From: Desulfatiglandales bacterium
Lineage (GTDB): Bacteria; Desulfobacterota; DSM-4660; Desulfatiglandales; HGW-15
Length of the DNA stretch: 64,000 bases
Reading direction: 5' to 3'
NCBI GenBank assembly: GCA_049366815.1
Contig: JBMNCO010000132.1
Span: 8,891-72,890, forward strand
A program made the position numbers and the translations under genes. Shown one piece after another: positions 37,742 through 56,284 of the stretch. Each line of letters begins with the position of its first letter. The first letter of the stretch is position 1. A model generated the notes under the pieces. That model did not search any database. It saw only the letters and a program-made list of their open reading frames with translations, and was not told where the DNA came from.

Positions 37742-39598
37742 ATGGCAGATAAAAAGCGATTTCCCTATCCAGATGAAGTTGTCCTGCCACCCGAACTGGA
37801 GGGATGGGAGGAGATGTATCCGCCTCAAAGGCTTTTCAGTGATGACCGGGCCGACTGGGAAAAAAGGCATTTCTGGTATCAGGACAAGATCCACGCATCC
37901 GAGCCCATGTATCCACTGGACGACATTTTCCAGGAGGCCTGGCAAATCGCGCTCTCCCAGTTTACCACAAGGGTATTCTGCATCCCTCCCGCCCAGGGCG
38001 TGGCACACAGGATGCTGGGTTGCTACATGTACATCGCCGCGGTCGAACCACCCCCTCCCGAGGTGATTCAAAAGAAGGCTGAGTTGTTCGGCAAAAGGGT
38101 CCCCTACACCTTTGAGAATTATCTGAAGCAGTTTGAGGTATGGCTTGAAAGATTTCAAAAACTGGGTAGAGAAATGGAACAGCTCTCCATACCGGAAAAA
38201 TTGCCCCAGTTTGTGCCTGACGAAGAGGTTATCCCCATGCCCAAGGGGGTCACGGACGGCCATCAGGTGATGGAAAACTTCAATACCATCATCAGCCAGA
38301 TCTTCAAGGCCTGGCAATACCATTTCCAGTACCTGAACCTCGCCTATCTGGCCTATCTCATGTTCGTGGATACAGCAAGAAAACTCTTCCCGGGGATCAA
38401 AGAGTCCACCATCGGCAAGATGGTTGCAGGCGCCGAGGTCTCCATGTTCCGCCCCGAGGAGGAACTGTGCCGGCTGAGCAAGCTGGCGGCCGCCAAAGAC
38501 AATGTCAAAGACATCCTCAAGGGAGCCGGCCCCGCTGCGGACAAGATCAAGGCCCTGAGTGGGACCGATGAAGGCAAGGCGTGGCTCGATGAGATCGAGA
38601 AGATCAAGGACCCCTGGTTCTTTGTATCCTGCGGCAGTGGGTGGTACCACCAGGAGGGAAGCTGGATCACCAAGATGGATGTCCCCTTCAGTTATATGCA
38701 GAGTTATATTGAAAGACTCGAGCAGGGACATGAGATTGAACGTAATCTAAACGAGATCTCTGAAGAGCGGGATAGGATCGTCGGGGAGTACAGGGCCCTG
38801 ATCAAATCGGAAGACGATCTGAAATCCTTCGATGATGCCTATCATGTGGTCCGATCCATTTACAGGTATGCGGAGGACCACCTGTTCTGGGTGGAACATT
38901 GGCTGCACACCATCTGGTTTGCCAAGATCCGGAATTTCGGTGATCTTCTGGTGAATCAGAACGTATTGAAGGAGACGGATGACATCTTTCTCTTCAACCG
39001 TTTTGAGATCCCCATGATGCTGGAGGATATGGTCACGGCCTGGGCCCTGGGAGAGGGTGTCCCAACCAGAAAAATGTGGATGGAAAAGGCCGAGAAGCGA
39101 GCCAAGATCCTCCAGGCGGCCAATAAATGGAATGCAACCCCAGCCCTCGGAGTGCCCCCTGAAGAGATCGCGGAGCCCTTTACCCTGATGTTGTGGGGAG
39201 TGACGACCGACAAAGTCGATGAATGGCTCAAGGGAACGGCAACGGGAACGGGGGAAGTGAGCGAAGATATAACCGAACTCAGGGGATTCGCCTCGTCGGC
39301 CGGTATTGCGGAAGGCCCGGCCAGGGTGCTCAAGCTCCTCCGGGACGTGGTGGATCTCCAGCCCGGCGAGATCATGGTCGCCCCGACGACCAACCCGTCA
39401 TGGGCGCCCGTGTTTACCAAGCTGAAGGGGGCGGTTACGGATATCGGTGGCCTCACCTCCCATGCGGCCATTGTCTCCCGGGAATACGGTCTGCCTTCCG
39501 TAACCGGGACAGGGGTCGCAACCACCGTGATCAAGACCGGAGATATCATCCGGATTGACGGCAGCACCGGAGTCGTTACGATTGTAAAGAGGGCATAG
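37742..39598 (+). CDS. Phenylphosphate-synthase alpha-like subunit (PEP-utilizing enzyme, mobile phosphohistidine domain), paralog 1
   Basis: 618 aa, matching the ~70 kDa size of the Thauera-type protein 1. The C-terminal swivel domain is SWAPVFTKLKGAVTDIGGLTSHAAIVSREYGLP..TGDIIRIDGSTG. There is no ATP-grasp domain, which is supplied by the next gene. Confidence 0.8.
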   Translation: MADKKRFPYPDEVVLPPELEGWEEMYPPQRLFSDDRADWEKRHFWYQDKIHASEPMYPLDDIFQEAWQIALSQFTTRVFCIPPAQGVAHRMLGCYMYIAAVEPPPPEVIQKKAELFGKRVPYTFENYLKQFEVWLERFQKLGREMEQLSIPEKLPQFVPDEEVIPMPKGVTDGHQVMENFNTIISQIFKAWQYHFQYLNLAYLAYLMFVDTARKLFPGIKESTIGKMVAGAEVSMFRPEEELCRLSKLAAAKDNVKDILKGAGPAADKIKALSGTDEGKAWLDEIEKIKDPWFFVSCGSGWYHQEGSWITKMDVPFSYMQSYIERLEQGHEIERNLNEISEERDRIVGEYRALIKSEDDLKSFDDAYHVVRSIYRYAEDHLFWVEHWLHTIWFAKIRNFGDLLVNQNVLKETDDIFLFNRFEIPMMLEDMVTAWALGEGVPTRKMWMEKAEKRAKILQAANKWNATPALGVPPEEIAEPFTLMLWGVTTDKVDEWLKGTATGTGEVSEDITELRGFASSAGIAEGPARVLKLLRDVVDLQPGEIMVAPTTNPSWAPVFTKLKGAVTDIGGLTSHAAIVSREYGLPSVTGTGVATTVIKTGDIIRIDGSTGVVTIVKRA

Positions 39599-39683
39599 GC
39601 TGACATCGTAGTATGCCGGGGGTACACCTTCAAGGACCCCCGGCCCGTGTCAGTGATACGGCATGAACAGATAGGAGGGCAAA

Positions 39684-40760
39684 ATGCCAGAGCAATGGAT
39701 ATTCGGATTTGGGGAACTCGGTAAAGACCATAATAACATCGTGGGCAAAAAGTGCGCGAACCTCGGAGAAATGACCAAAGCCGGCTTTCACGTGCCGCCC
39801 GGCTTTGCCTTGAGTATCCTCGCATACGAACGGTTTATGAGAGAGACGGAAGCTGAAAAAAGCGTGCTGAAATACCTGGAAAATTTCCATGCGGACCCCG
39901 AGTCCGTGGAGGAAACGCCGAAATTTGACGCCGCCTCCAAGGAGATAAGAGGCATTGTCGAATCCATCAGGATGCCGGCCGATATGGAAGAAACCATTAA
40001 GGATTACTACGCTCAATTGTGCAAAGAAACAGGTATCGAAAACACATTCGTAGCCACTAGGTCGGCAGGGGCCTCGAGCCATCCCGGTCAATATGAGACC
40101 TATCTCAATGTGAGCGGGCCTGACGAAGTGGTCAGGAATGTGATACGTGTGTGGTCAAGCACATTCAATACCCGTTCGATGATTTCGAGGGCAAGGCTTG
40201 GGCTGCCGCTTCATTTTGATCCCATCGGGGTGGCCGTTCTCACCATGGTGGACGCAAAGGCCGCCGGCGTGATGCTCACCGTCAACCCGGTGAACGGTGA
40301 CGAATCGAAAGTCGCCCTTGAGGCCGGTTTCGGTGTCGGTGAAGCGGTCGTCTCGGGGAACGTGACCCCTGATCGGTATCTGGTCGACAAGATCACGTTG
40401 GAAATAGACGAAAAGTTCATCTCTGAGAAGGGCGCAGAGTACGCCTACAACCCTGAAACCAGGAAAATGGAATGGAAAGAACTCCCGCCCGAAAAAAGAA
40501 AGCTGCCTTCTCTTGACGACATAGAGATCATCGAGCTGACAAAGATCGCCAAGAAGGTGGAGGCCCATTTCGGCTGCCTGCAGGACATCGAGTTCTCCGT
40601 CTCGAGGACCTTGCCCTTTCCAGAAAACATCTTTCTCGTACAGGCCCGCCCCGAGAGCGTCTGGGCAAAGAAAGAAAAAAAATCGGTTTTGGGCAAAAAG
40701 AGTGGTTTTGAATTATTATTCGAAAAGGCGACAACGCCTATCAAGCTGAAGACAGATTAA
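39684..40760 (+). CDS. Phenylphosphate-synthase beta-like subunit (PPDK/PEP-synthase N-terminal ATP-grasp domain), paralog 1
   Basis: 358 aa (~40 kDa). VGKKCANLGEMTKAGFHVPPGFAL, TRSAGASSHPGQYETYLNV and LQDIEFSV are typical of the nucleotide-binding domain of PEP synthase-like enzymes. Confidence 0.8.
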   Translation: MPEQWIFGFGELGKDHNNIVGKKCANLGEMTKAGFHVPPGFALSILAYERFMRETEAEKSVLKYLENFHADPESVEETPKFDAASKEIRGIVESIRMPADMEETIKDYYAQLCKETGIENTFVATRSAGASSHPGQYETYLNVSGPDEVVRNVIRVWSSTFNTRSMISRARLGLPLHFDPIGVAVLTMVDAKAAGVMLTVNPVNGDESKVALEAGFGVGEAVVSGNVTPDRYLVDKITLEIDEKFISEKGAEYAYNPETRKMEWKELPPEKRKLPSLDDIEIIELTKIAKKVEAHFGCLQDIEFSVSRTLPFPENIFLVQARPESVWAKKEKKSVLGKKSGFELLFEKATTPIKLKTD

Positions 40761-40772
40761 GGAGGCTGGACA

Positions 40773-41285
40773 ATGGAGGAACGCAGTTTACTGAATGGCA
40801 AAAAGATCCTAGCTGTGGACGATGAGCCGGATATTCTTGAATTCCTTGAAGAACACTTGAACATGTGTCAGATCGTGAAGGCTGCCAGCTTCACGGATGC
40901 AAAGAATTTACTGGAATCTCAGGATTTCGATGCGGCCATTCTGGATATCATGGGCGTTAACGGCTACGAACTTCTCGAAATTGCGAACAGGAGGAAGATT
41001 CCCTGCCTCATGTTGACGGCCCATGCCTTCAGTCCGGACAACATCGTGCGATCCATCAAGGAGGGCGCAGCGTCTTACGTGCCCAAGGAGGAGATAGCGA
41101 AGGTCGAAGCTTTTCTGAATGACATATTTCTCGCACAGGAAAAGGGCGAAAATCCCTGGGTGTCATGGCAGGAACGACTCCCCGGTTCTTATTTCAGAAT
41201 GAGGTTTGGTGCGGCCTGGGATGCAGCGGACGATCAATTCCGGAATGCCCTTAAGGATGTCCTTCGATCCAGATCGAAGACCTAG
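40773..41285 (+). CDS. Stand-alone response-regulator receiver domain protein with ~50-aa C-terminal extension
   Basis: All receiver catalytic positions are present: acidic pair VDDEPD, phospho-acceptor AAILDIMG, LMLTAH (Thr) and SYVPKE (Lys). There is no output domain. RBS AAGGAGG. Starts 12 nt after the beta-like gene stop. Confidence 0.85.
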   Translation: MEERSLLNGKKILAVDDEPDILEFLEEHLNMCQIVKAASFTDAKNLLESQDFDAAILDIMGVNGYELLEIANRRKIPCLMLTAHAFSPDNIVRSIKEGAASYVPKEEIAKVEAFLNDIFLAQEKGENPWVSWQERLPGSYFRMRFGAAWDAADDQFRNALKDVLRSRSKT

Positions 41286-41996
41286 ATGAAACTGGGGGGA
41301 GTGACCGTTGACCGGCCGCCCCCTCCCCTTTCAATTCTATGAGACCATCCCGGTGCCCTCACGTTGCAGGCCCTTGCTTTCCTTTTACAACGCACTGCCC
41401 GATTAGATCCAAGAAGACAGAATAACTCCCCCGGAATCATTGCTGATCTCGGGAACTGAATCGTGCCAATCCTTAGCGCTGGCTGCCTTCAAGGCGCAGG
41501 TCCATCGCGCCATAATTACATAAATTAATTTTATGTATTTCATATATTTAATTTATTTGACTCGGATAAGTTAAAGTTTTATTAGGACCCAAAACACAGG
41601 ATCAATTTTCCTGACTATTTCGTGGACCATTAATAGAGAATCATTGTGCAACGATCCAAAGCAATAACTGAGGGAATGACCTTTTCTCCCGACACAGCGG
41701 TCTGCACTTTGAGAAAGCCTTAAACCTGTCAAACCCAGAGCTTGTTGAGGATAACATCACTGAGCGATATGCGGCGTACTGAGCACTAAAGATTCAATCA
41801 GCAGTGAAATATGACCCGATAGTCCTACATCTCAAAAATCACAGAGGAAGGGGCTGTAGCGCACCCCGATAAACGTGCTTTGATTCAAAAAGATAGGTCT
41901 TTTTGTGTGATCCGGATAATGGTTAAAGGTTAAGCCCCAGGCGCTGGGCCCGGGAAACAGACCAATTTATTAATCCATGAAATAGGAGGAACCATT

Positions 41997-43097
41997 ATGG
42001 CAAACGGAAAGATTGGAATCGGACCGGAAGGCTCTTTAGGAGGCTTCATTCAACTCATCATTTTATCATTCCTTGGCATTGTCCTCTGCGTCTACGCTCT
42101 CCCACTGGACCTCATCATCCTAAAAATCATGCCGGCCACACTCATCATGCTCGTCGCCCTGGGGCACCTTTCCCTGCTGGGAGACAGCTTCCCCTACGCC
42201 CCCCCCGGGGGAGACTGGACCCCTGAGAAATCCCGTTTCTCCGCAGGGCTCAGAATGACCTGCATCTGGGTCGTTTTCACTTTTGCTGTCTTGCTCTTTA
42301 TGCGGTTTGTCTATCCAGGATGGCCCATCGGTCCCCTCTATATCTGGTTCGGCGCGATCGCATTCGGGCTCACCCTGCTCTATGGTATCAACTGGAACGG
42401 CTGGCCCTTTAAGGGGCACATGCACCCCTGGGCCATGATGGCCGTGGGTTTTGTCGTCATCATGGGTCTCTCCATCCTGATCTGGACCACCCTGACAAAC
42501 CTGGATGGAACCCCCCTCGCGGACACACCGATGAATCATCACGGGCCTCTCCAGGCTGAGTGGTTCACCGGATACATCGTCTGGGTCATAGCCTGGTTTT
42601 TCGTCTTCAACCCCGTTTTCACCACCCAGGGCTGGCCTTTCGGCAAATTGGGCCACCCGGGCGCAGCCGTTGCACAAACCATTATTGCCCTCATCCTGGG
42701 CTACATCTTCTGGAACGGCAGCCTGTCCATGGGAATAAGTCCGAGCCTTTCCTTCGGCGCGATCGCTTCTTCCATCATCCTTTGGGGCCTGATCTACGGC
42801 TGGCATCTCCAGTTCTGGGGCATCACCAAACAGACCTTCGGCACAAGGGCGGTCCTCGCGTTTATCATTCAGTGTATCATCGTCGTTGTCTGGATATTCA
42901 TTTTGAGGCTGATCCTGGCTCCGGCCGCAGCAGCCTTAGCAGCGGCGCAACTCCCGGCCGACATCAATATCCTGATCCTTTACTTTAATCTCTGCATCCT
43001 GGGTCCGGCCCTGATCGGCCACAATGCCTTCTGGCTCAGATGGCCCTTGACCATGCCGGCCCCTCCGGGAACCCCGCCGCCGGATCAGTCGGTCTAA
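41997..43097 (+). CDS. Polytopic Trp/Gly-rich integral membrane protein, family unassigned
   Basis: 366 aa with about 9-10 hydrophobic segments and many W/G/P residues at segment ends. The C-terminus is Pro-rich. RBS AGGAGGAA precedes the ATG. I recognise no motif. Confidence 0.7.
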   Translation: MANGKIGIGPEGSLGGFIQLIILSFLGIVLCVYALPLDLIILKIMPATLIMLVALGHLSLLGDSFPYAPPGGDWTPEKSRFSAGLRMTCIWVVFTFAVLLFMRFVYPGWPIGPLYIWFGAIAFGLTLLYGINWNGWPFKGHMHPWAMMAVGFVVIMGLSILIWTTLTNLDGTPLADTPMNHHGPLQAEWFTGYIVWVIAWFFVFNPVFTTQGWPFGKLGHPGAAVAQTIIALILGYIFWNGSLSMGISPSLSFGAIASSIILWGLIYGWHLQFWGITKQTFGTRAVLAFIIQCIIVVVWIFILRLILAPAAAALAAAQLPADINILILYFNLCILGPALIGHNAFWLRWPLTMPAPPGTPPPDQSV

Positions 43098-43241
43098 CGG
43101 CCTGTGGTGGTCCCATGCGCTTCATAAAACGAGAGGCACTGGAATATTTAATCAACACGAGTGTTACAAAGGCGTCACACGGCAGTCTTTTCAGTCTCAC
43201 GGTCATTACTAACCCAACACCTTAGAGGAGGAAGAAAAGAA

Positions 43242-45092
43242 ATGGCGAAAAAATTTACAGACCCCCACGATATCCCAACCATCCCCGGCACCGAAGGATG
43301 GGAAAGGATGTACCCCTACCAGTATATCTTCTCCACGGACGATCCCGACAGGGCGAAACACGAAAGTGCCCAGTTGTGGTACAACGACGGGCTCCACTAC
43401 CCGGACCCCCACTGTCCCTTTGATCTCCTTTGGGATGAATTCTGGTTCATGGGCCTGTCCCAGAACAACACCCGGGTCTTCTGTCTGCCCCCGGCCAAGG
43501 GCATCGAACACAGGATCGTCAACGGGTACGTCTATATCGCGCCCATCGGCGTCGAAGACCCCAAGGAGATCGAGGCCCGTGTTCCCCTTTTTATGAAAAG
43601 GGCCGGATACTACTATGACAACTGGGAAACCCTCTGGGACGAGTGGGAGGCGAAGTTCAACGTCCTCCTGAGGCAGCTCGAGGCCGTCTCATTCCAGGCC
43701 CTTCCGGAAGTGGAGGATGAATCGCGTGTTTTCGATGCAGACAAAAGGGGGCTCTCAAGCGGCTATGTGCTCCTGACCAAATACGACGAGCTCATCAACA
43801 TGGGCTTCAAGTGCTGGCAATATCACTTTGATATGCTGAACCTCTGCTACGCGGGTTTTCTCACCTACAAGAATACCTTTGACCAGATCTTCCCGAACAC
43901 CCCGATCGGCACCATCACAAAGCTTGTCTCGGGTATGGATGCCATGGTCATGAGACCGGACGCGGAACTCATCAAGCTGGCAAAAATGGCCATAGATAAA
44001 GGTGTTGACGGCATACTCCTCAAGGACCAGGATGCAGCCGCCTGCATGAAGGAAATGGAGGGTTCGGCCGCGGGTAAGGAATGGTTGGCCCAGCTGGAAG
44101 AATCCCGGTATCCCTGGTTCTATATCTCAAGCGGTACAGGCTGGTACCATTATGACGCCTCATGGAACGACAACCTGAACATCCCCTTTGCTTCCCTAAA
44201 GAAGCATATCGAGTCCCTGAAGGCGGGCAAGGACCCCTCACGGCCCATGGAAAAACTGGTCGCGGAAAAGGACAGGGTCACCGAGGAATACCGTTCCCTG
44301 ATCCAGACCGACGAGGACCGGGTTGCCTTTGATCAGACCCTTTCGATTGCCCGCCGCATCTTCCCCTATGCCGAGAACCACATGTTCTATGTCGAACAGT
44401 GGTTCCACAGTGTCTTCTGGAACAAGATGCGCCAGGTCGCGGACATCCTCAAGGATGCCAATTTTATTGAAGACCGGGAAGATATATGGTATTTGAAGAG
44501 GGGAGAGATCCGAGACGCCCTGCAGGATTACGGCACGGCCTGGGCCACCGGTGTGAAACCGAGGGGACCTGCTTACTGGCCGAAGGAGATCGAATGGCGC
44601 AAAGGGGTCATGCAGAAATTCAAGGAATGGACCCCGCCTCCGGCCCTGGGGACACCTCCTGAGGTCATGACCGAACCCTTCTCGATCATGAGCTGGGGCA
44701 TTACGGACGAAGTCCTCCAAAACTGGCTCGCAGCCGGCGATGTTTCAGGAGAGGAAGGACCTTCCGATGAATTGAAGGGCTCTCCCGGCGCCCCGGGTGT
44801 TGCAGAAGGCAAGGCCAGGATTATTAAGTCGGTTGATGAGCTGGCCCTGTTGCAGCAGGGAGAGATCCTTGTCGCCAGGATCACGGCCCCAAGCTGGGCA
44901 CCGGCCTTCGCTCAGCTCAAGGGAGCCGTTACGGACGTGGGTGGCTCCATGTGTCACGCGGCCATCATCTGTCGCGAATACGCCCTGCCCACGGTCGTGG
45001 GAACAGGGACTGCCACTTCCGCTATTAAGACGGGGGATCTGATCCGCATAGACGGTGATACCGGTACGGTAAAGATTCTTCAAAGGGCCTAA
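43242..45092 (+). CDS. Phenylphosphate-synthase alpha-like subunit, paralog 2 (diverged)
   Basis: Collinear with 37742..39598 (EGWE.MYP, TRVFC.PPA.G..HR, KCWQYHF, WF(Y/F)(I/V)S.G.GWYH, SWAPAF..LKGAVTD.GG). The phosphohistidine loop reads GGSMCHAAIICREYALP instead of GGLTSHAAIVSREYGLP. RBS GAGGAGGA. Confidence 0.8.
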   Translation: MAKKFTDPHDIPTIPGTEGWERMYPYQYIFSTDDPDRAKHESAQLWYNDGLHYPDPHCPFDLLWDEFWFMGLSQNNTRVFCLPPAKGIEHRIVNGYVYIAPIGVEDPKEIEARVPLFMKRAGYYYDNWETLWDEWEAKFNVLLRQLEAVSFQALPEVEDESRVFDADKRGLSSGYVLLTKYDELINMGFKCWQYHFDMLNLCYAGFLTYKNTFDQIFPNTPIGTITKLVSGMDAMVMRPDAELIKLAKMAIDKGVDGILLKDQDAAACMKEMEGSAAGKEWLAQLEESRYPWFYISSGTGWYHYDASWNDNLNIPFASLKKHIESLKAGKDPSRPMEKLVAEKDRVTEEYRSLIQTDEDRVAFDQTLSIARRIFPYAENHMFYVEQWFHSVFWNKMRQVADILKDANFIEDREDIWYLKRGEIRDALQDYGTAWATGVKPRGPAYWPKEIEWRKGVMQKFKEWTPPPALGTPPEVMTEPFSIMSWGITDEVLQNWLAAGDVSGEEGPSDELKGSPGAPGVAEGKARIIKSVDELALLQQGEILVARITAPSWAPAFAQLKGAVTDVGGSMCHAAIICREYALPTVVGTGTATSAIKTGDLIRIDGDTGTVKILQRA

Positions 45093-45293
45093 ACGCATAG
45101 GCACGATAGACTTAGGGTAAATCGTGTGGTTCCAGCCGGAAATGGACCCGGCATCCGCCTCAAACTTGGCAACTCGCGGCGGGAGGGTCCATCTCCGGCA
45201 TATTACATAACAGGGCTGGATCAAAAAAAGACAGTCCGCTTCAACGTGTGCACACTGTGTGCACCGTATATTTTGTTCTATTTGGGGGTAGAC

Positions 45294-46364
45294 ATGGTTG
45301 AAAAAGAAAAACGCATAACCATTTGGTATGATGAATTGTCGGGGGACGAATTCAATCTGGTCGGGAAAAAAAACGCGAATTTGGGCGAGATGACCAAGGC
45401 CAAGATTCCGGTAAGTCCAGGGTTCGCCCTCACGATTTACGCAAATGATCTTTTTGTGACGGAAACGGGCATCAAGGACAAACTGAGAGAGTGCGTCAAA
45501 GGCATCGAGAAATTCGACTACGAAAACAGCCGCAGGGCAAGTGAATTTGCCGTTGACCTCATCGAAAACACGCCCATTCCCGCCAGCATCACCGATCAAA
45601 TCTTTCAGGACTACAAGAGGCTCTGCGGCATGTCCGGTTGCGAGAATGTGCCGGTTGCCACGCGTTCAAGCGGCGCGGTATCCATGCCGGGACAGATGGA
45701 GACCTACCTGAATGTACGGGGGGAAGAGGACCTTCTCAAATACATCAAGAAGACCTGGGCCAGCGCCTACTTTGTAGAGGCCATCACCTACCGCATGGAA
45801 AAAGGCATGCACTTCATCCTCAATATCGGGGTGGGCGTTCCCAAAATGGTCAATTCCAGGGTATCGGGCATCATTTTTACGATGAACCCGCTGAACGGCG
45901 ACCGCTCCAAGATCTCGGTGGATGTCAGTTACGGGCTCGGTGAGGCCGTTGTGAGCGGCCTGGTCACTCCGGACAACTACCTGGTGGACAAGGTTACTCT
46001 TGAGACCATCACCGCCACCAAGGGTGAAAAGAAGATCAAGATGGTCTACAGAGAAGACGGCAGCACGATCAAAGAGGTCGAAGTTTCCGAGGAAGAGCGG
46101 AACAAGTTCAGCATCACCCAAGAAGAACTCAGTGAGATCTGCAGGATCGCCAAGTCCATTGACAAATACTACGGCAAACCCTATGACATCGAATTTGCTA
46201 TTGATGGAGACCTGCCTTTCCCGCAAAACGTCATCGTTCTTCAGGTAAGGCCCGAATCCGTATGGTCCAAAAAGCAGGCTGAAGCAAAGACCGAACCAAA
46301 GAGGGACGTGATGGACAGGATCCTCGGCACCATGGTGGCCGGCGTCAAGTTGAAGAAGTCGTAA
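45294..46364 (+). CDS. Phenylphosphate-synthase beta-like ATP-grasp subunit, paralog 2
   Basis: VGKKNANLGEMTKAKIPVSPGFAL, TRSSGAVSMPGQMETYLNV and YDIEFAI are collinear with 39684..40760. ATG 45294 follows GGGGG; the track start at 45126 is rejected. Confidence 0.8.
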   Translation: MVEKEKRITIWYDELSGDEFNLVGKKNANLGEMTKAKIPVSPGFALTIYANDLFVTETGIKDKLRECVKGIEKFDYENSRRASEFAVDLIENTPIPASITDQIFQDYKRLCGMSGCENVPVATRSSGAVSMPGQMETYLNVRGEEDLLKYIKKTWASAYFVEAITYRMEKGMHFILNIGVGVPKMVNSRVSGIIFTMNPLNGDRSKISVDVSYGLGEAVVSGLVTPDNYLVDKVTLETITATKGEKKIKMVYREDGSTIKEVEVSEEERNKFSITQEELSEICRIAKSIDKYYGKPYDIEFAIDGDLPFPQNVIVLQVRPESVWSKKQAEAKTEPKRDVMDRILGTMVAGVKLKKS

Positions 46365-46451
46365 TGTCTCGTATCAAACCAAGGTGAAAAATAACCCGTC
46401 CAAGAAGACTTCAGGACGGCACACATTCTGTCCTCATCTGAAGGAGGAGGC

Positions 46452-47663
46452 ATGGGAACTCAGGGAATTATCGCAATTCTTGGGACGTTTGACTCCAAAC
46501 CGGAGGAACATCTTTTTCTTAAAAGAAACATCGAGGACAGGGGACTCAAGACACTGACAATAAACGTGGGGACTCGATGTCCAGCGGCCTTTGCGCCGGA
46601 CATCGACCTCCACGAAAAGCTCACGGAGGAAGACCGAAGGAGCCGAGACGCCGCTATTCAGGCCACCGTTGACAGGGGTCGGAAGCTGGTCAGGGATTTG
46701 TACGACCGGGGTGAAATCTCGGGCATCATTTCGGCCGGGGGCGGGACAGGGACACATCTCGGTACGAGCATCATGCACGTCCTCCCGCTCGGCGTGCCGA
46801 AGGTCATGGTCTCCACTGTGGCCTCCAGAAACATGGCCAAGGTGGTGGGGACCAAAGACATCACCATGATGCACAGCGTGGTCGATCTCCTTGGCATCAA
46901 CAGCATTTCCGGAGGCGTGCTCGAAAGGGCCGCGGGGGCTGTCTGCGGCATGGCGCAGAACAGGTGGAGGCCCGATACCACCAGAAGGCGTGTTGCACTC
47001 ACCTTTTTCGGTTTCATCACAGCGGCCGCCGAGGCCGTGAAGGAATGCCTGGAAGGCATGGACTACGAGGTCATCCCGTTTCACGCAAATGGGACGGGCG
47101 GTATGGCTATGGAGGAATTGGCGGCCGAGGGTTATTTTCACGCCATCCTGGACCTCGCCACCCATGAACTCGCCGACGAGATGATGGGCGGTTACTGCCG
47201 CGGTATCGGTCCCGAGAGGCTGAGACCGCTGACGAACGGCCACATCCCCCGCCTCGTCGTCCCGGGAGGGCTCGATTGCGCGGTCCTCGAATTTACCCGT
47301 CAAAACATTCCCGAGGAATTCAGGGACAGAAAGCTTTTCTTTTACGATTTCAGATCGGCCATCCGTCTCACACTTGAAGAAACCCTCACCCTTGCGGAAC
47401 AACTTGTTGAGAAGCTGAAAATTCACCCAACCCACACCAAGGTCCTTGTCCCTGTTCAGGGCTGGTCTGAAGCCGATCGGAAGGGCGGTCCTCTCTATGA
47501 TCCCCCAATCAGTGAGGCCCTCGTCAAGGTACTCAGGACTGCATTGCACCCGAGAATCGAGGTACGGGAGGCGGACCTCCATATCAATGACCCGGCCTTT
47601 GCCCGTGCGGCCGGCATGTTAATGGACGAGATGGTCAAAGAAGCGATGGGCAGCTCCCAATAA
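46452..47663 (+). CDS. UPF0261 family protein (Tm-1-like ATP-binding domain)
   Basis: IAILGTFDSKPEEHLFLK, ISAGGGTGTHLGT, LGVPKVMVSTVAS and IPFHANGTGGMAMEEL are, as I recall, characteristic of the UPF0261/Tm-1 N-terminal family. The usual TIM-barrel PEP-hydrolase-like partner gene is not adjacent. Confidence 0.7.
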   Translation: MGTQGIIAILGTFDSKPEEHLFLKRNIEDRGLKTLTINVGTRCPAAFAPDIDLHEKLTEEDRRSRDAAIQATVDRGRKLVRDLYDRGEISGIISAGGGTGTHLGTSIMHVLPLGVPKVMVSTVASRNMAKVVGTKDITMMHSVVDLLGINSISGGVLERAAGAVCGMAQNRWRPDTTRRRVALTFFGFITAAAEAVKECLEGMDYEVIPFHANGTGGMAMEELAAEGYFHAILDLATHELADEMMGGYCRGIGPERLRPLTNGHIPRLVVPGGLDCAVLEFTRQNIPEEFRDRKLFFYDFRSAIRLTLEETLTLAEQLVEKLKIHPTHTKVLVPVQGWSEADRKGGPLYDPPISEALVKVLRTALHPRIEVREADLHINDPAFARAAGMLMDEMVKEAMGSSQ

Positions 47664-47698: not shown

Positions 47699-48631
47699 TC
47701 ACCTCACACGCCCTCGATACCCCATCCCCTCAAAGGGGATACTCTCTCCAGCCAATTTCTGCAGAATACGCAAAAAGGCCTGAGCCGCGGGTGAAAGGGG
47801 CACCTCCCGGTGATAGGAGATGCTGACCTCCAACCCTACCTCTTCCCCTTTCAGGGACAAGGCGATTATTTTCCCCTCCTGCACCTCTTTTCGCACCGCC
47901 TCCTTGACCAGAAAGGCGACCCCGCCCCCACTCCCCACGATCTGCTTGATGAAACCCGCGTTGCTGGTCTCCATCAGTATTCTGGGCGTGATATTGTTGC
48001 GTGCGAACAGTTCGTCCACCACACCCCGTGTTGATGATCCGACTTCCCGCATAATGAGCGGCTCATCCATCAGATCTTCAAGGGTAACGATCTTATTTTC
48101 TGCAAGCCGGTGATTTTTCGGAACAATAACCAACAATGGCTCTTTGCGGAATGGGATGGAAATGATCTTGGGATCCTTCACGTTATGGGCCACGATTGCC
48201 AGATCAATATCAAGATTGAACAGGCTTCGCATCACTTCCGCTGAACTCCCCTGATACAGACACACCTTGATCTTGGGATAGGCGTAATGAAACGTGCTGA
48301 TCAGAAAGGACATACGGTATCGCGCATACATGGTACTCGTTCCAATACGGAGGGTGCCGCATTTCAAGCCCTTCATATCCTCGATCACCCCTTCGATCTC
48401 CTTTTCGAGGTCGAACAGCTTTTTCACATGGAGGTATAAGGACTTGCCTTCTTCGGTGAGTTCTATATGCCTTCCCTTTTTTTTGAACAGTTTCAGATCG
48501 CATGCATCTTCAAGAAACTTTATCTGGGCGGTCACGGCCGGCTGGGTAACCATGAGTTCCTGAGCAGCCACGGTAATACTCTTATTTCTGCCAACATGAT
48601 AGAATACCCTGAGTTGGTTGAGGTTCAACAT
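47699..48631 (-). CDS. LysR-family transcriptional regulator (paralog 1)
   Basis: N-terminal wHTH MLNLNQLRVFYHVGRNKSITVAAQELMVTQPAVTAQIKFLE plus a LysR substrate-binding domain. Divergent from the UbiD cluster. Confidence 0.9.
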   Translation of the reverse strand: MLNLNQLRVFYHVGRNKSITVAAQELMVTQPAVTAQIKFLEDACDLKLFKKKGRHIELTEEGKSLYLHVKKLFDLEKEIEGVIEDMKGLKCGTLRIGTSTMYARYRMSFLISTFHYAYPKIKVCLYQGSSAEVMRSLFNLDIDLAIVAHNVKDPKIISIPFRKEPLLVIVPKNHRLAENKIVTLEDLMDEPLIMREVGSSTRGVVDELFARNNITPRILMETSNAGFIKQIVGSGGGVAFLVKEAVRKEVQEGKIIALSLKGEEVGLEVSISYHREVPLSPAAQAFLRILQKLAGESIPFEGMGYRGRVR

Positions 48632-48910
48632 CGCGTCTCACCCTCCCGCATGCAAAGCGTTTCCTTTCTAAAAAAGCCCACTTGTCACTATCTGTTGTTA
48701 TAGCTCGGCCATATTTTACGGTCCCATGAGCGGTTTCGGCCGCTGTATCCACTGTCCTTTTGACCCCCGCACCATAAAAGCGAGACTGCGGGTCTGTCTC
48801 CACAACGTATCCCGTCCTGGAAGGATTTTTATGTATACCCCATTTTATCGGCAATAAAAAATATTTTTTATAGCTCTCTTGATTATTAAGATATTATTAT
48901 AATTTGTGCT

Positions 48911-49081
48911 CATCCGGAAATGAGCATTCCCGGATTCGCGCTAACAGCTATCAGCGATCAGCCATCAGCGATCAGCGATCAGCTATCAGCAAAAGCTATG
49001 CAAAGACAAGGCATTAGGCTGAGCGCTGAATGCCGATAGCAGACCGCTCCATCCAGAAATCATTTATTTCTGGATGGAAAC
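48911..49081. repeat. Intergenic repeat family A, copy 3 (expanded heptamer tract)
   Basis: Has the same termini as copy 1, but the TCAGCNA tract is expanded to six units (TCAGCGA TCAGCCA TCAGCGA TCAGCGA TCAGCTA TCAGCAA). The 12-bp 3' hairpin is CCATCCAGAAAT/ATTTCTGGATGG. Confidence 0.85.
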
Positions 49082-49571
49082 TAATTTAGGCATGATCTTC
49101 AGGGCCTTTTACCTGGAGCGATTTCCCTTTGGCCGAAGACGACGGGGGAGTTCTCATGAAGGATTCCTGAATTTTCATTATCGATGAGGTCACAGCAGTG
49201 TCTGGACCCGGCTGGACAGGTCAGGGAAAGCACCTCAACACACAGAGAGAGACATGGCGTGGACCGGCGCACTGGATTTCAGATGTGTGGAGCAAAATCG
49301 AAAAAAGGATAGTACGTCTATAGCGTTGGAACTTGCCAACAGACAAAAAGTAGAATACGAAGAAGAAACATGGAAATGGCCTCGATGATAACATAATCTT
49401 ATCCTGCTTCCAAATGCATAATAATATGTTATGAGTCACATAAGAATAATGAAATTGACAAGCATGGACCGGATAGGTCATCCTGAAGCGCGTTCCATAA
49501 TATTACAAGTGGGATGAAAGGCCTCTTTTTTACCTACCGACGACAAAACCTTGGACACATGGAATCTGTCG

Positions 49572-49599
49572 TTGACAACACAATAAAACGCTTTATACT
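49572..49599 (+). promoter_or_regulatory. Candidate sigma-70 promoter for the UbiD/HAD carboxylase operon
   Basis: TTGACA (49572-77), a 16-nt spacer, then TATACT (49594-99), about 175 nt upstream of ATG 49773. Motif match only. Confidence 0.4.
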
Positions 49600-49772
49600 T
49601 TTCGTTTTTGACGCTTGAAGTTTTTGTTTTGTGCTCTTAGTTTCCCGTAATTCCCGATTCTCCAGGGCGGGCCTGTAACAGGCCCACTTTTCGATCGTAA
49701 ACCTGGAGGCCGGGATTCATCGTGACATTCTAGAATTCTAAACCGTTTATCCTTTTAAGGGAGGTATCTCCA

Positions 49773-51191
49773 ATGAAAGATCTAAGAGATTATGTCGCCA
49801 AGGCTGAAGAGATAGGTCAGCTCCGCCGGGTAAAGGCTGAAGTGGACTGGGATCTCGAACTTTCACACATCTGCAAAGTCACTGAAGAAAAGAGTGGGCC
49901 CGCCCTTCTTTTTGAGAACGTGAAGGGGTATTCTAGCCCCGTCCTGACGGGTGCATTCGGCACGACCGAGAGATTGGCCCTCATCCTCGGAGCGGATCCC
50001 AAGCTCTCCATGGTCGGACTGACAAAAGAGTGGGTGAACGCCTCTGTCAAGGATCTCATCCCGGCCCAAGAGGTCAAAGACGGCCCCATCTTTGAAAATG
50101 TGGTCGAGGCTGATAAGGTGGACACCTTTGCCTTTCCTTCACCAAGGTTTTACGAACTGGACGGCGGGCGCTACTTCGGTACCGCTGTGTTCATGGCCAT
50201 CCAGGACCCTGACACGGGTAAGGTCAACCTCGGCACCTACCGCATGGGTATCCTGGATGACAAAACCGTGGGTGTCCAGATCCTCAGAGGAAAGACGGCC
50301 GATAGGATCCTGCAGAAATGGGGAAAGAAGGGCAAAAAGATGCCCGCATGCGCGATCATAGGCGGTGACCCCCTGCATATCTTTGCCGGGGCCGCTACCG
50401 TGCCCAATGCCAAGAGCGGATACGACGTGGTGGGATCTCTTCGCGGCGCCCCGGTTGAAATTGTGAAGTCCCAACTGAGTGGCCTGCCCATTCCGGCCGC
50501 GGCAGAAATCGTGCTGGAAGGTGAGATCGACGCCGAGCAGCTGAGAGAAGAGGGACCCTTCGGCGAATACACCGGCTACTACACGGAAGAGTTGATCAAG
50601 CCGATTCCCAAGCCCGCGCTCGAAGTCAAACGCGTCTACTATCGAAACAACCCCATCCTGTGGGAGACGAGTGTCGGCAGGCCCGTAGGCGACCAGCACA
50701 TGCTCTATGCCTTTGTGCGAAACGCCAGCCTGTGGTCGGAACTGACCAGGTGGAATATGCCCGGCATCAAGTCCGTGTACACCATGCCGGAGGCGTCCGG
50801 CCGCTTCTGGGTCATCGTCTCCGTACAGCAGATGTATCCCGGTCACGCCGATCAGATAGCCGCGGCGGTCATCGCAAGCAATACGGGAACTTACGGAATC
50901 AAGGGCATCATTCTTGTTGACGACGACATCGACGCGGACGATCTGCCAAGGGTATGGTGGGCGCTCGGCACCCGATACAACCCGGACCGCGGCACACAGA
51001 TTATCAAAAGAGGAAGGTCCACCCCGCTCGATCCGGCCCTCGGTGCGGACGAGAACAAGTTCATCACCTCACGCATCATCCTGGATGCGACCATACCTTT
51101 CGATTGGAAGATCAAGCCCACGGAAATCAAGCTTACGGAAAGCGTCATGGAAAAGGTGAAGGCCAGGTGGGCCGAATACGGCATAGACTAA
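49773..51191 (+). CDS. UbiD-family (de)carboxylase, phenylphosphate-carboxylase alpha/beta-like, paralog 1
   Basis: 472 aa. MKDLRDYV..IGQLRRVKAEVDWDLELS..GPALLFENVKGY and FGEYTGYYT are the UbiD family hallmarks. RBS GGGAGG. Confidence 0.85.
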   Translation: MKDLRDYVAKAEEIGQLRRVKAEVDWDLELSHICKVTEEKSGPALLFENVKGYSSPVLTGAFGTTERLALILGADPKLSMVGLTKEWVNASVKDLIPAQEVKDGPIFENVVEADKVDTFAFPSPRFYELDGGRYFGTAVFMAIQDPDTGKVNLGTYRMGILDDKTVGVQILRGKTADRILQKWGKKGKKMPACAIIGGDPLHIFAGAATVPNAKSGYDVVGSLRGAPVEIVKSQLSGLPIPAAAEIVLEGEIDAEQLREEGPFGEYTGYYTEELIKPIPKPALEVKRVYYRNNPILWETSVGRPVGDQHMLYAFVRNASLWSELTRWNMPGIKSVYTMPEASGRFWVIVSVQQMYPGHADQIAAAVIASNTGTYGIKGIILVDDDIDADDLPRVWWALGTRYNPDRGTQIIKRGRSTPLDPALGADENKFITSRIILDATIPFDWKIKPTEIKLTESVMEKVKARWAEYGID

Positions 51192-51204
51192 TAAGGAGGT
51201 CAGT

Positions 51205-51762
51205 ATGGGCTTCGATAAGGATATAAAAGACGCACAGGAAAGGGCCAAAAAGCTCAAACTTTTTGCCCATGACGTTCATGGGATACTTACCCAGAACAAT
51301 TTTTATTGTGACATCGAGGGACGTCGCAGATATGGCTTCTGGCATATGGACGGCTTCGGGGACCTCTCCCTGGTGGCCAATAAGATCCAAGTTGCCTTTT
51401 TGGACAGCACATCTGTGGACGAAGAGGGCCTGTTCCGGGCCAAGGAGTTGAAACTTGACAAGTTCTACTACAAAGTCACGAATAAGCTGGCCAAGCTGGA
51501 GGAACTCAAAAAGGAACTGGATATAGCCGATGAGAACATCGGTTATATGGGGTGCGAAGTCACGGATCTCCCGGCCATGAAGCGAGTCGGTTTCGCTGTG
51601 GCCACGGCGGACGCCATTGATGATGTCAAGGAGGTCGCACATTATATTACCACGGCCCCCGGAGGAAGAGGGGCCATGCGTGAGATCTGCGAATTCATTC
51701 TCAGGGCCATGGGACAATGGGAAACCTGGGTCGATATGGTCACCAAGAAGGGTTACAAGTAG
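51205..51762 (+). CDS. KdsC-like HAD-superfamily protein (phenylphosphate carboxylase delta-like), copy 1, with altered catalytic motifs
   Basis: Collinear with KdsC-type phosphatases. Motif I reads DVHG rather than DxDG. Motif IV reads GCEVTD rather than GDDxxD. The GGRGA(M/V)RE tail is retained. Confidence 0.75.
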   Translation: MGFDKDIKDAQERAKKLKLFAHDVHGILTQNNFYCDIEGRRRYGFWHMDGFGDLSLVANKIQVAFLDSTSVDEEGLFRAKELKLDKFYYKVTNKLAKLEELKKELDIADENIGYMGCEVTDLPAMKRVGFAVATADAIDDVKEVAHYITTAPGGRGAMREICEFILRAMGQWETWVDMVTKKGYK

Positions 51763-51784
51763 CCGTTAAAGGAGGGGTGACATA

Positions 51785-52324
51785 ATGGTAAGTATGGAAA
51801 ATGCAATAGAAAAGGCAAAGCAAGTCAAGTTCGTCATCCTGGACATCCATGGGATCCTCACGGATAACACGCTTTATTATACGGATGAGGGGACGAAGTC
51901 GGAGTGTTTCTCCCTGGCGGATCGGCTGGGGTGTATGGCCCTGATGGAAGCGGGAATCGGCGTGTCCTTCCTGACCACCAAAATTTCCCGGGCGGATCAA
52001 CAGGTCGGAAAGGTCTATACGGTCCCTGATGACAAGCTCTGGGGCACAGGCGCCAAGATGGGTAGGCTCGACGAATTTGAAAAGGAATCGGGTTACCAGG
52101 ATCACGACTTCTGCTATGTTGGTGATGAGATGATCGACCTCGGCATCATGAAGCGGGTCGGTTTTGCCGTTGCGCCGGCCGACGGCGCGACAGAGGCCAA
52201 GGGTGTCGCCGATTTGATCACAAAGGCCAACGGCGGCAAGGGAGTCGTCAGAGAAACTGCGGAATTCATTCTCAAGGCCCAGGGAAAGTGGGATTCAGTG
52301 ATACAAACACTGACGCAGTCATAG
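51785..52324 (+). CDS. KdsC-like HAD-superfamily protein (phenylphosphate carboxylase delta-like), copy 2
   Basis: FVILDIHGILTDN (motif I is again D-x-H), YVGDEMIDLGIMKRVGFAVAPADG and GGKGVVRE. RBS AAAGGAGGGG. Confidence 0.75.
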   Translation: MVSMENAIEKAKQVKFVILDIHGILTDNTLYYTDEGTKSECFSLADRLGCMALMEAGIGVSFLTTKISRADQQVGKVYTVPDDKLWGTGAKMGRLDEFEKESGYQDHDFCYVGDEMIDLGIMKRVGFAVAPADGATEAKGVADLITKANGGKGVVRETAEFILKAQGKWDSVIQTLTQS

Positions 52325-52538
52325 TGAAGTCCAAAAGCGGATAAGGAGGGTTGATACAGGAACCCTTTTCATGCTCCGGCCTGTAATAATCTATTTGAAA
52401 AAAAAGAGTGAACGCTTTCAGGTGCGCAACGGAAGAGAGCGCCGGGACAACCGGCGCATCTCCCAGCCGAGAGGATCGTACCGGTGTGGGAGTCAGATTC
52501 TCCGGATGCCTACCGTTTATATCAAAAAGGAGGTTTAG

Positions 52539-53984: not shown

Positions 53985-54000
53985 ACAGGAGGAAAAATCC

Positions 54001-54273
54001 ATGGCAAGAAAAGAATATGATACCTACGTGTTAGTCGATCCTGCGACGGTCCCCGAGGATCAGGAGATGGAAGTTATCCTCCGGGATCTGAACCCTGAGG
54101 ACAGACGACACAAATATCGAAGCTTCTTCGCGAAAGTCAAGATCTCCAAGTCCGACAGCAAGTACCCGAATTTGCTCCAGGTCAGACTTGGCCGAGGCCA
54201 GCTTCAGGAAAAACGTTGGTCCGTCGAGGTTCTGCAGGTAGTGGATAAATTCGCGCAGGGAGCAGCTGCATGA
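54001..54273 (+). CDS. Small (90 aa) protein, candidate phenylphosphate-carboxylase gamma-like subunit
   Basis: Its ~10 kDa size and its position between UbiD paralogs match the small gamma subunit reported for the Thauera enzyme. RBS AGGAGGAA. The stop overlaps the next gene's start. No motif is recognisable. Confidence 0.5.
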   Translation: MARKEYDTYVLVDPATVPEDQEMEVILRDLNPEDRRHKYRSFFAKVKISKSDSKYPNLLQVRLGRGQLQEKRWSVEVLQVVDKFAQGAAA

Positions 54274-55637: not shown

Positions 55638-56284
55638 AAAGACTGGTTGTGGGCATTTCAGGTGCGACCGGCGCGATTTACGGTATCCGGCTCCTTGAGG
55701 TTTTGTCTCAATTGGACATTGAGAGCCATGTAGTCATTTCGGAGGCTGCGATCAGGACGATCCACATGGAAACCCCTTGGACGATAGAGGGGGTCAAGGC
55801 CCTGGCCCATACCTGGTATGACATACGGGACGTTGGGGCGGATATTGCGAGTGGATCCTTCATTTGCGAGGGCATGGTCGTGATCCCGTGCGCTATCAAG
55901 ACCCTGTCCGGAATCGCCCATTCCTACAATGACAATCTCCTGCTCCGTGCCGCTGACGTGGCCTTGAAGGAAAAACGCAAGCTGGTTGTCGTTGTCAGGG
56001 AGACACCTCTGCATAAAGGCCACTTGAGCCTCATGTTGACCCTGGCGGATCTCGGTGCCACGATCCTTCCCCCCATCCCCGCCTTCTACTCACTCCCCAA
56101 GACGATTGATGATCTCATCAATCATTTGGTAGGCAAGGTCCTGGACATGTTCCACATCGAGCACCAGCTGTTCGCCCGGTGGGGCAGCGACAAACTGAAA
56201 AGCACGGTCACCGAAAAAGAGAAATCAAAATGCGCGGGGGTGACCGATCCCGCAACAGACCCCGGCAACAGAGGAAAGCTTTAA
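55628..56284 (+). CDS. ubiX: UbiX-family flavin prenyltransferase (prFMN synthase)
   Basis: KRLVVGISGATGAIYGIRLLEVL, MVVIPCAIKTLSGIAHS and VVRETPLH are the canonical UbiX/Pad1 motifs. Confidence 0.9.
   Translation: MEMKRLVVGISGATGAIYGIRLLEVLSQLDIESHVVISEAAIRTIHMETPWTIEGVKALAHTWYDIRDVGADIASGSFICEGMVVIPCAIKTLSGIAHSYNDNLLLRAADVALKEKRKLVVVVRETPLHKGHLSLMLTLADLGATILPPIPAFYSLPKTIDDLINHLVGKVLDMFHIEHQLFARWGSDKLKSTVTEKEKSKCAGVTDPATDPGNRGKL

Follow-up and report, generated by a model that had tools for sequence, protein, structure and literature searches.

The subject of this analysis is a 64-kb stretch of a Desulfatiglandales metagenome-assembled genome (MAG; contig JBMNCO010000132.1, 64,000 nucleotides, hereafter 'the window'), in which two gene pairs resembling the alpha and beta subunits of phenylphosphate synthase lie in tandem. 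On the best reading of its gene content, the region carrying these pairs is the kinase half of an island of about 20 kb, from 37.7 to 57.4 kb, for the anaerobic activation and carboxylation of phenol. We consider it fairly probable that two phenylphosphate synthases of different ancestry feed one phenol pathway here. This reading is favoured because phenol-linked members are found in both kinase clades, because both clades are linked to ppcA/B/C/D genes, because the island has one carboxylase, and because neither pair appears orthologous to Pas, the phenylphosphoamidate (aniline) synthase of Desulfatiglans anilini. The genes of the kinase half are the following.

37742-39598, + strand: alpha1, substrate-binding and phosphohistidine swivel subunit of the D. 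anilini Pps-alpha type (618 aa)
39684-40760, + strand: beta1, ATP-grasp (ATP-presenting) subunit of pair 1 (PPDK_N)
40773-41285, + strand: receiver protein (REC, CheY-like), third gene of the pair 1 operon (170 aa; Response_reg, E 2.3e-12), separated by a gap of 711 nt from the membrane protein gene
41997-43097, + strand: integral membrane protein with about 11 helices, of no known family (AF2 model)
43242-45092, + strand: alpha2, substrate-binding and swivel subunit, sister to the canonical PpsA type (616 aa)
45294-46364, + strand: beta2, ATP-grasp subunit of pair 2 (PPDK_N)
46452-47663, + strand: UPF0261 / Tm-1-like protein of the MarK family, putative ATP-dependent aryl-O phosphotransferase (both UPF0261 domains)

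The original prediction, made from the letters and their translations, had placed two collinear and strongly diverged alpha/beta pairs at these coordinates, and this description held. The open reading frames were confirmed, and genes called independently on a Logan contig of almost the same sequence match them in position and content; in addition, an NCBI protein (MFZ7111863.1) is 100% identical to alpha2. The two alphas are 40% identical (250/618), as are the two betas (132/326), and the alpha-to-beta gaps measure 85 nt in pair 1 and 201 nt in pair 2. As judged from domain profiles and the catalytic histidine, each pair makes up an intact PpsAB-family aryl dikinase of two components. The PEP-utilizers swivel domain (PF00391) is found at the C-terminus of both alphas in Pfam (E 1.7e-24 for alpha1, 2.4e-23 for alpha2), both alphas match PRK08296 families over their full length in a profile search, and the PPDK_N ATP-grasp domain (PF01326) spans nearly the whole of beta1 (E 3.7e-81) and beta2 (E 3.5e-90). 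Profile scores of this strength do not arise by chance. Every family-invariant residue is intact in both full-length pairs. A sequence search of the PDB with alpha2 returned swivel-domain matches only (RPH and phosphoenolpyruvate (PEP) synthase), and no PpsA or HpeH structure was found.

The catalytic loops were also as first quoted, GGLTSHAAIVSRE in alpha1 and GGSMCHAAIICRE in alpha2, and the catalytic histidine is kept in both: His574 of alpha1 (nt 39461-39463, loop GGLTSH) and His572 of alpha2 (nt 44955-44957, loop GGSMCH). The swivel motif T/SxxGGxxxH reads TDIGGLTSH in alpha1 and TDVGGSMCH in alpha2, and its histidine column is invariant in 12 aligned homologs. The loop turned out to be a clade signature: GGLT[S/C]H in the alpha1 clade, GG[S/P/A]MCH in the alpha2 clade, and GGVMSH in the canonical clade. 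Position -2 relative to the catalytic histidine is Thr throughout the alpha1 clade and Met in the alpha2 and canonical clades, and this difference correlates with the partner gene, REC versus CBS. In PEP synthase and pyruvate, phosphate dikinase the Thr at this position is a regulatory phosphorylation site, while the characterised phenolic dikinases have Met (PMC12167813).

Taking identity and gene order together, pair 1 with REC is the ortholog of the phenol-induced Pps-alpha/Pps-beta/02050 set of D. anilini. alpha1, beta1 and REC are 74, 74 and 64% identical to H567DRAFT_02052, 02051 and 02050, with the same gene order, and the loop GGLTSHAAIVSRE is identical in D. anilini Pps-alpha. The D. 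anilini proteins were reached through homolog cluster membership. They lie on contig L086, where the phe cluster consists of UbiD (Ppc-beta2), a ligase, UPF0261, UbiX, three HCR subunits, Pps-alpha, Pps-beta, a 175-aa REC and a CoA ligase. The Pps-alpha, Pps-beta and 02050 proteins are 5-9-fold up on phenol, and extracts of phenol-grown cells make phenylphosphate (PMC6114531; Table_1 of PMC7500099). Relatives of alpha1 include ABN80334, annotated as 'phenylphosphate synthase subunit A', from strain AK1. On the NF006153 model alpha1 scores 810 bits; on NF006152, the equivalog model of canonical PpsA, it stays below the cutoff (586 bits; D. anilini Pps-alpha 577, a Cre-like Rhodococcus protein 602). 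A full Ppc set adjoins alpha1-type pairs at five of the loci compared (L006, L007, L009, L075, L076). Like the window, the D. anilini phe cluster (H567DRAFT_02049-02059; Xie & Muller 2018, Xie et al. 2020) has UPF0261, UbiX and a PpcB-type UbiD, and neither has a linked CBS-domain PpsC. Unlike the window, it has one kinase pair, a single UbiD and no PpcC; the window has in addition a second kinase pair, the membrane protein and a complete PpcB-D-D-A-C set.

By its model score and tree placement, pair 2 belongs to a sister lineage of the canonical Thauera/Azoarcus PpsA. The canonical enzymes, those of Thauera aromatica and Aromatoleum aromaticum, were represented by the cluster on plasmid pAZKH of Azoarcus sp. 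KH32C, found by tblastn against plasmids, which encodes a sigma-54 regulator, PpsA, PpsB, CBS PpsC, ppcB, ppcD, ppcA, ppcG, UbiD and UbiX. On NF006152 alpha2 scores 857 bits, above the cutoff of 723 (Azoarcus KH32C PpsA scores 1300), and its identity to Azoarcus PpsA is 54%, against 42% for alpha1; alpha and beta of pair 2 are 40% identical to D. anilini Pps. alpha2-type genes occur within ppc operons at two other loci, L170 and L089, in the order PpcB, f11, beta, HAD, HAD, PpcA, PpcC, alpha. With the canonical PpsABC and Ppc cluster the window shares, besides membership of alpha2 in NF006152, the PpcC, HAD, UbiD and UbiX genes. It differs in that beta2 is only 38% identical to Azoarcus PpsB, that the HAD gene is duplicated, that the regulators are of LysR type instead of sigma-54-dependent, and that a CBS PpsC is missing. 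The last point had been noted from the start, and a tblastn search with the PpsC protein indeed found no homolog across the 64-kb window. A CBS gene is absent from all five alpha2-clade loci (0/5) and present in 28/28 canonical-clade loci. A UPF0261 gene is found in 0/4 of the canonical clusters with a full Ppc set, whereas the window has one.

Two further protein families without a Pfam match were observed beside alpha2-type and Syntrophorhabdus pairs (L010-L012, L168, L170), one of about 215 aa just upstream and one of about 365 aa just downstream. The 215-aa protein ('f11') that precedes alpha2-type pairs elsewhere is absent from the window. The 365-aa protein (L168, L010-L012) was considered as a counterpart of the window's membrane protein and rejected, the two not being homologous.

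Phylogenies of both subunits agree with this picture. A neighbour-joining tree was built from 157 alphas reduced to 40 representatives, with bootstraps on Kimura-corrected p-distances. The clade of alpha1 with D. anilini was recovered in 100/100 replicates, the alpha2 clade in 97 and the canonical clade in 100, and alpha2 and canonical clades grouped together in 92/100; alpha1 and D. anilini WP_051184705 (H567DRAFT_02052) were sister leaves in 94/100. In the beta tree, each beta travels with its own alpha type: beta1 groups with D. anilini Pps-beta, and beta2 lies in a separate clade whose members pair only with alpha2-type alphas.

About 75 loci were compared in all; a scan of genome contigs yielded only alpha1-clade loci. 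The design with two kinases and one carboxylase recurs in two Syntrophorhabdus loci (L011, L012), and both kinase clades are also found in one locus of another Desulfatiglandales MAG (L066).

A complete phenylphosphate carboxylase set, which the original prediction left unmentioned, occupies positions 49773-56284 and starts 2 kb beyond the region considered there. With its two flanking regulators, it forms the second half of the island.

47699-48631, - strand: LysR-type regulator (HTH_1 and LysR_substrate)
49773-51191, + strand: PpcB (TIGR02724)
51205-51762 and 51785-52324, + strand: two PpcD-like HAD proteins (match to the delta model below cutoff)
52539-53984, + strand: PpcA (TIGR02723)
54001-54273, + strand: PpcC (match to the gamma model below cutoff)
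54270-55637, + strand: third UbiD
55628-56284, + strand: UbiX (NF004685)
56289-57359, - strand: second LysR-type regulator, closing the island (NCBIfam LysR-family matches)

PpcB (644 bits on TIGR02724, cutoff 469) and PpcA (703 bits on TIGR02723, cutoff 565) lie 3-7 kb downstream of the kinase genes and are 58-61% identical to the Azoarcus proteins. This is the only complete carboxylase within the island. The third UbiD also has a counterpart in the canonical, single-kinase Azoarcus cluster. The gene content makes the island a hybrid, as far as homology can tell, of a Desulfatiglans-type kinase module and a Thauera-like kinase with a full carboxylase, and its base composition is even throughout. 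The tandem PpcD-like HAD genes compare with a single one in Azoarcus, and the duplication is kept in L009, L011, L075 and L170. Canonical-clade clusters in metagenome loci (L090-L164) come in two forms, either PpsABC and full PpcB/D/A without UPF0261, or A, B, single UbiD, UPF0261, CBS and UbiX.

The first LysR gene points towards the UPF0261 gene and away from the ppc operon. The second encodes a protein 50-57% identical to the LysR that in many loci precedes alpha1-type pairs; of the alpha1-clade loci, 31/42 have a LysR gene nearby, mostly directly upstream and divergent. Promoter and terminator scans of the region gave matches not above shuffled expectation, so that operon boundaries rest on gene spacing alone; an Rfam search of the window returned no RNA family. 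Between the first LysR gene and ppcB lies a low-GC stretch of 1.1 kb without genes (48632-49772), which contains the best sigma-70-like match of the region (49572-49599, 11/12).

In the mechanism that we propose, which is established for the family, the beta subunit would present ATP through its ATP-grasp domain. The swivel-domain histidine of alpha (H574 or H572) would become pyrophosphorylated and then lose phosphate, and the remaining phosphoryl group would pass to a phenolic oxygen bound in the N-terminal domain of alpha, each pair acting as an AMP-forming dikinase. Both pairs would most likely make phenylphosphate, or close aryl phosphates, for the single downstream PpcB-D-D-A-C carboxylase. 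They would be isoenzymes, perhaps differing in affinity, regulation or side-substrate range, and not parts of two separate pathways.

The main alternative is that the pairs are kinases for different aromatics, one taking for example phenol and the other cresol, catechol, hydroquinone or a further phenolic, and that each has an accessory protein of its own. The original prediction had gone in this direction, with different substrates and at least one unknown specificity. The distance between the pairs (40% identity) and their different catalytic-loop signatures speak for it, as does the fact that family members about 45% identical to one another differ in preference, PpsAB acting on phenol, CreHI on 4-cresol and HpeHI on hydroxyacetophenones (PMC12167813). 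Moreover, both clades share a locus in at least three lineages (the window, L011/L012 and L066), which suggests non-redundant roles, and the additional UbiD paralog at 54270-55637 could serve a second aryl phosphate. The last argument is weakened by the single-kinase Azoarcus cluster, in which a third UbiD is present as well, so that this gene gives no evidence of a second pathway. Furthermore, phenol-linked members are known in both clades, both clades associate with bona fide ppcA/B/C/D genes, and the carboxylase of the island is single. The dikinases are also promiscuous, HpeHI phosphorylating phenol and cresol as well, and the Pas enzyme phenol. That alpha1 is a 74% ortholog of a phenol-induced Pps, and that alpha2 passes the PpsA equivalog cutoff and has relatives inside ppc operons, likewise argues against the predicted difference. 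In the phylogeny, which had been called for, alpha1 falls with D. anilini Pps and alpha2 beside the canonical type, both of them branches with a known link to phenol. We hold different substrates to be possible and not probable.

Two other explanations were weighed against that of two phenylphosphate synthases. One of the pairs might be a phenylphosphoamidate synthase like D. anilini Pas-alpha/beta, which is of the same enzyme family, aniline having been among the candidate substrates initially named. The lineage is indeed Desulfatiglandales, and a UPF0261 gene (03869) is embedded in the D. anilini ani cluster, its product being detected only on 4-aminobenzoate and aniline. However, Pas-alpha is shorter (554 aa), and its published identities are low, 28% with Thauera PpsA and no more than 36% with proteins of the D. 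anilini phe cluster (PMC7500099). For alpha1, in contrast, identity to D. anilini Pps-alpha is 74%, and for alpha2 identity to canonical PpsA is 54%; by these figures, through which the comparison with Pas was made, neither window pair appears to be an ortholog. A Pas-like short alpha from locus L104 shares only 26% identity with alpha2 and has a long branch of its own in the tree, and no 4-aminobenzoyl-CoA genes adjoin the pairs. We regard an aniline synthase as extremely improbable here, and aniline as an unlikely substrate given the length and identities published for Pas-alpha. The other explanation is simple redundancy or decay, with one pair recently acquired by horizontal transfer and unexpressed or being lost. 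The different ancestry of the pairs would fit, as would L168, from a related genome and likewise flanked by FtsK-LolA, where an alpha2-type pair is the only one. Against it, both pairs are full length with family-invariant residues and catalytic histidine intact, base composition is even over the island, and the tandem arrangement is found again in Syntrophorhabdus and a second Desulfatiglandales MAG; we consider this explanation quite improbable.

Several points weigh against two phenylphosphate synthases serving one pathway. The function of the island is predicted from its genes, and the roles proposed below for REC and UPF0261 are suggested by where the genes lie, by their co-occurrence and by homology. 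With 40% identity, the pairs are as far apart as PpsA, CreH and HpeH, which prefer different phenolics (PMC12167813), so that the substrate cannot be fixed from sequence alone. The alpha1 clade is no nearer to canonical PpsA than is the Cre-like Rhodococcus protein, and its assignment to phenol comes from D. anilini proteomics and extract assays, not from a purified enzyme. Azoarcus KH32C stands in, on grounds of synteny, for the Thauera enzyme on which the biochemistry was done. The UPF0261 subfamily of the D. anilini type (02057) has Ser in place of His219 of MarK, hence not all cluster-linked UPF0261 proteins need be kinases. Finally, the upkeep of two costly kinases for one substrate calls for explanation.

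At L104, the divergent short alpha (1940-3619, 559 aa, no NCBIfam match at 1e-80) and a beta (5994-7049) lie upstream of a canonical PpsAB-UbiD-UPF0261-CBS-UbiX cluster, and they may form a Pas-like second kinase. The aerobic phenolic dikinases HpeHI, AcvAB and CreHI resemble the window pairs in their split into an alpha of about 70 kDa with the swivel histidine and a beta of about 40 kDa with the ATP-grasp domain, and in the motif T/SxxGGxxxH; Rhodococcus homologs are about 41-46% identical. They differ in their neighbours, P450/SDR/HD proteins or a biotin carboxylase versus the UbiD carboxylase of the window, and NCBIfam places the Cre-like Rhodococcus alpha in a different subfamily, NF006150. 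Locus L171, on pRB98 of Rhodococcus oxybenzonivorans, has a beta-alpha pair (41% identity to alpha2) with genes for P450, SDR, ferredoxin and reductase, HD phosphohydrolase and aldehyde dehydrogenase beside it. From this neighbourhood, L171 is a Cre-like 4-cresol cluster, and its alpha is the one that defines NF006150.

The third genes of the pairs are those originally described, REC (40773-41285) after pair 1 and UPF0261 (46452-47663) after pair 2. REC starts 12 nt past the end of beta1. It has D16/D17, the phospho-acceptor D58, T82 and K105, all with a conservation of at least 90% over 36 homologs; given this conserved acidic pocket with Asp58, Thr82 and Lys105, REC looks phosphorylatable. 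It has no known output domain. In its place is a C-terminal extension of about 60 aa with the motif W..W...LP.SYF.R.GA.W, at least 90% conserved in the same homologs. The proteome areas reported for the D. anilini ortholog 02050 are 1.06e9 on 4-aminobenzoate, 8.8e8 on aniline, 6.9e8 on benzoate and 6.0e9 on phenol, the last value being similar to those of Pps-beta (4.0e9) and Pps-alpha (7.4e9) on phenol (PMC7500099).

Partner genes were counted per clade over loci with at least 7 kb downstream of alpha. REC is present in 22/42 alpha1-clade loci and in 0/28 canonical-clade loci (Fisher p 7e-7), while CBS is present in 1/42 and 28/28, respectively (Fisher p 1e-18), both P values being inflated by the relatedness of the loci. 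As the third gene after alpha and beta, REC therefore swaps with CBS by clade, which bears out its description as an alternative third partner; in its distribution it behaves like a clade-specific replacement for ppsC. In the alpha1 lineage, REC would take the place that the CBS protein PpsC has elsewhere, modulating the kinase as an abundant partner open to phosphorylation; its phosphoryl groups may come from the phosphohistidine of the kinase itself or from a histidine kinase. The accessory genes are not undescribed, as had been supposed: genes of both the REC and the UPF0261 types are part of the clusters (phe and ani) already published for D. anilini, and their products are listed in the proteome tables, with no discussion of their roles. 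Overall, what remains of the initial interpretation is the presence of dual kinases with non-CBS partners, while differing or unknown specificity is no longer the best reading.

The UPF0261 protein matches both the N- and the C-terminal domain of its family (PF06792, E 9e-52; PF23189, E 9e-60). The first catalytic assignment in this family came in 2025 with MarK (Saro_1862, PDB 9MPY) of Novosphingobium aromaticivorans, a homodimeric ATP-to-ADP kinase of phenolic hydroxyls (PMC12624787). MarK and the window protein match from end to end (E 1.2e-43) and belong to one two-domain fold family. The ATP site D14-T15-K16 of MarK corresponds to D14-S15-K16, and its ligands of the phenol oxygen, Gly195 (backbone N) and His219, to G187 and H211. 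Tm-1 also has the histidine that binds the phenol oxygen, which is hence a family trait and no proof of kinase activity. The two proteins are only 28% identical, and His348 (the ketone ligand), Thr196, Phe283, Ile285 and His304 of MarK are replaced by Ala341, Phe188, Cys276, Val278 and Tyr298. Since the acetovanillone-specific pocket is not kept, a different ligand is expected. The settings differ too, an aerobic acetovanillone pathway with a biotin carboxylase for MarK and an anaerobic UbiD-type phenol island here.

Orthologs of the window type (54-64% identical) were found in 20 related loci, and their pocket residues are the same or almost the same. Across the loci, UPF0261 proteins fall into at least five subfamilies, each with its own pocket signature, with up to three paralogs per cluster, and this diversification fits ligand-specific enzymes better than a generic chaperone. 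D. anilini 02057 belongs to another subfamily than the window protein (33% identical, His219 replaced by Ser). It is encoded beside ubiX in the phe cluster and is phenol-specific, with areas on 4-aminobenzoate, aniline, benzoate and phenol of 0, 5e7, 5e7 and 2.5e9; 03869, between Pas-beta and Pas-alpha in the ani cluster, gave 5.4e9, 6.5e8, 0 and 0 on the same substrates (PMC7500099). Overall, UPF0261 is found in 54/75 loci: in 42/46 single-UbiD clusters, compared to 3/9 of those with PpcA/C/D (p 5e-4, uncorrected for the relatedness of loci).

The original prediction had taken UPF0261 as the accessory protein of pair 2. We tested and rejected it as a substitute for PpsC, since UPF0261 and CBS occur together in 22/28 canonical-clade loci, in the order A, B, UbiD, UPF0261, CBS, UbiX; as MarK is moreover an autonomous aryl kinase (PMC12624787), an accessory role for UPF0261 is probably to be abandoned. 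It would rather work as an aryl-O phosphotransferase of MarK type, with a phenolic or an aryl phosphate of the pathway as substrate, and be no subunit of pair 2. Alternatively UPF0261, and possibly REC, could serve the UbiD/UbiX carboxylase rather than act as a kinase, either in handover or dephosphorylation of phenylphosphate, replacing the HAD delta subunit, or in the supply or maturation of prenylated flavin (prFMN). Its enrichment in single-UbiD clusters (42/46 versus 3/9) would be accounted for in this way, as would the order ligase, UPF0261, LpdD chaperone, UbiX seen in many loci, the phenol-specific 02057 beside ubiX, and a low-molecular-weight aryl phosphatase between two UPF0261 genes in L168. 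In addition, extracts of D. anilini gave no demonstrable phenylphosphate carboxylase activity. The window protein, however, is of a different subtype from the UbiX-adjacent one and keeps the MarK kinase residues, and the Ppc set of the island is complete, two HAD subunits included. MarK acts alone as a kinase (PMC12624787), and two UbiD subunits alone converted phenylphosphoamidate in vitro. We regard service to the carboxylase as rather unlikely.

In the library searched, no paper names both phenylphosphate synthase and UPF0261, and the MarK paper does not mention phenylphosphate (PMC12624787). A PF21758 gene (LpdD prenylated-flavin chaperone, 128-138 aa) was observed between UPF0261 and UbiX in many of the loci L002-L081 (and at L083, 3534-3950); the window has no copy. 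Among alpha2-type relatives L168 is the closest, and it has the FtsK-LolA flank in common with the window; there a PF01451 phosphatase gene lies between two UPF0261 genes downstream of a single UbiD (18173-21786).

The membrane protein between the pairs (41997-43097) was confirmed, as was the lack of a Pfam or NCBIfam match. Its homologs form 121 clusters, all named 'hypothetical'. The AF2 model has 11 helices (pLDDT 86.8, pTM 0.85), and a Foldseek search of the PDB with this model gave no match at E<=0.001 (best TM-score 0.28). Homologs 65-72% identical stand directly after alpha-beta pairs at related alpha1-clade loci such as L006, L007, L046, L058, L072, L074, L075, L078 and L079, so that the link to the kinase is recurrent. 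The gene probably starts a second transcription unit; uptake of the phenolic substrate would be a guess at the role of the protein.

The island itself is a recognisable phenol pathway, and the comparison that it prompted is of more use. The most novel lead is that most clusters have a UPF0261 gene, from the family of the ADP-forming aryl kinase MarK; the association of UPF0261 and REC with anaerobic phenol and aniline clusters is systematic. The odd neighbour genes (REC, the MarK-like kinase and the membrane protein) are widespread, unstudied companions of this pathway. UPF0261 lies beside about 70% of the approximately 75 pps/ppc loci, including both published D. anilini clusters, where it is substrate-specifically induced and was never discussed. 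It is a testable candidate for phosphorylation or dephosphorylation steps of phenol and aniline carboxylation in energy-limited anaerobes. That MarK-family UPF0261 and REC are unrecognised working parts of phenol and aniline activation in strict anaerobes is a speculative proposal, which we think unlikely as it stands. If it were true, UPF0261 proteins would be ADP-forming phenol kinases, or aryl-phosphate phosphotransferases partnering single-UbiD carboxylases, and either role would change the ATP bookkeeping of the pathway. The route to 4-hydroxybenzoyl-CoA takes up to four ATP equivalents, and for sulfate reducers this expense has been described as unexplained (PMC6114531). In the loci compared, the phenylphosphate-synthase family splits into lineages by third partner, CBS in the canonical clade and a phosphorylatable receiver in the Desulfatiglans clade. 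For annotation, some caution is called for: pairs labelled 'PEP-utilizing enzyme' in such organisms are of at least two phenol-linked types.

Elsewhere in the window, an ORF at 11188-13557 encodes a 789-aa HcrB-like flavoprotein (FAD_binding_5 ... CO_deh_flav_C) that is split by a module of Fer4_20 and pyridine-nucleotide oxidoreductase, and it is followed by an HcrA-like molybdopterin subunit (14046-16304). These genes (11188-16304) may encode an unusual 4-hydroxybenzoyl-CoA reductase, for the step after phenol carboxylation and CoA ligation. The start of an AMP-binding ligase-like gene at 63446-64000, 33% identical to D. anilini 02058, runs past the window end. Finally, a single ORF of 1766 aa at 19238-24538, about twice the normal length of UvrA, contains repeated UvrA-type ABC, UvrA_inter and DNA-binding domains.

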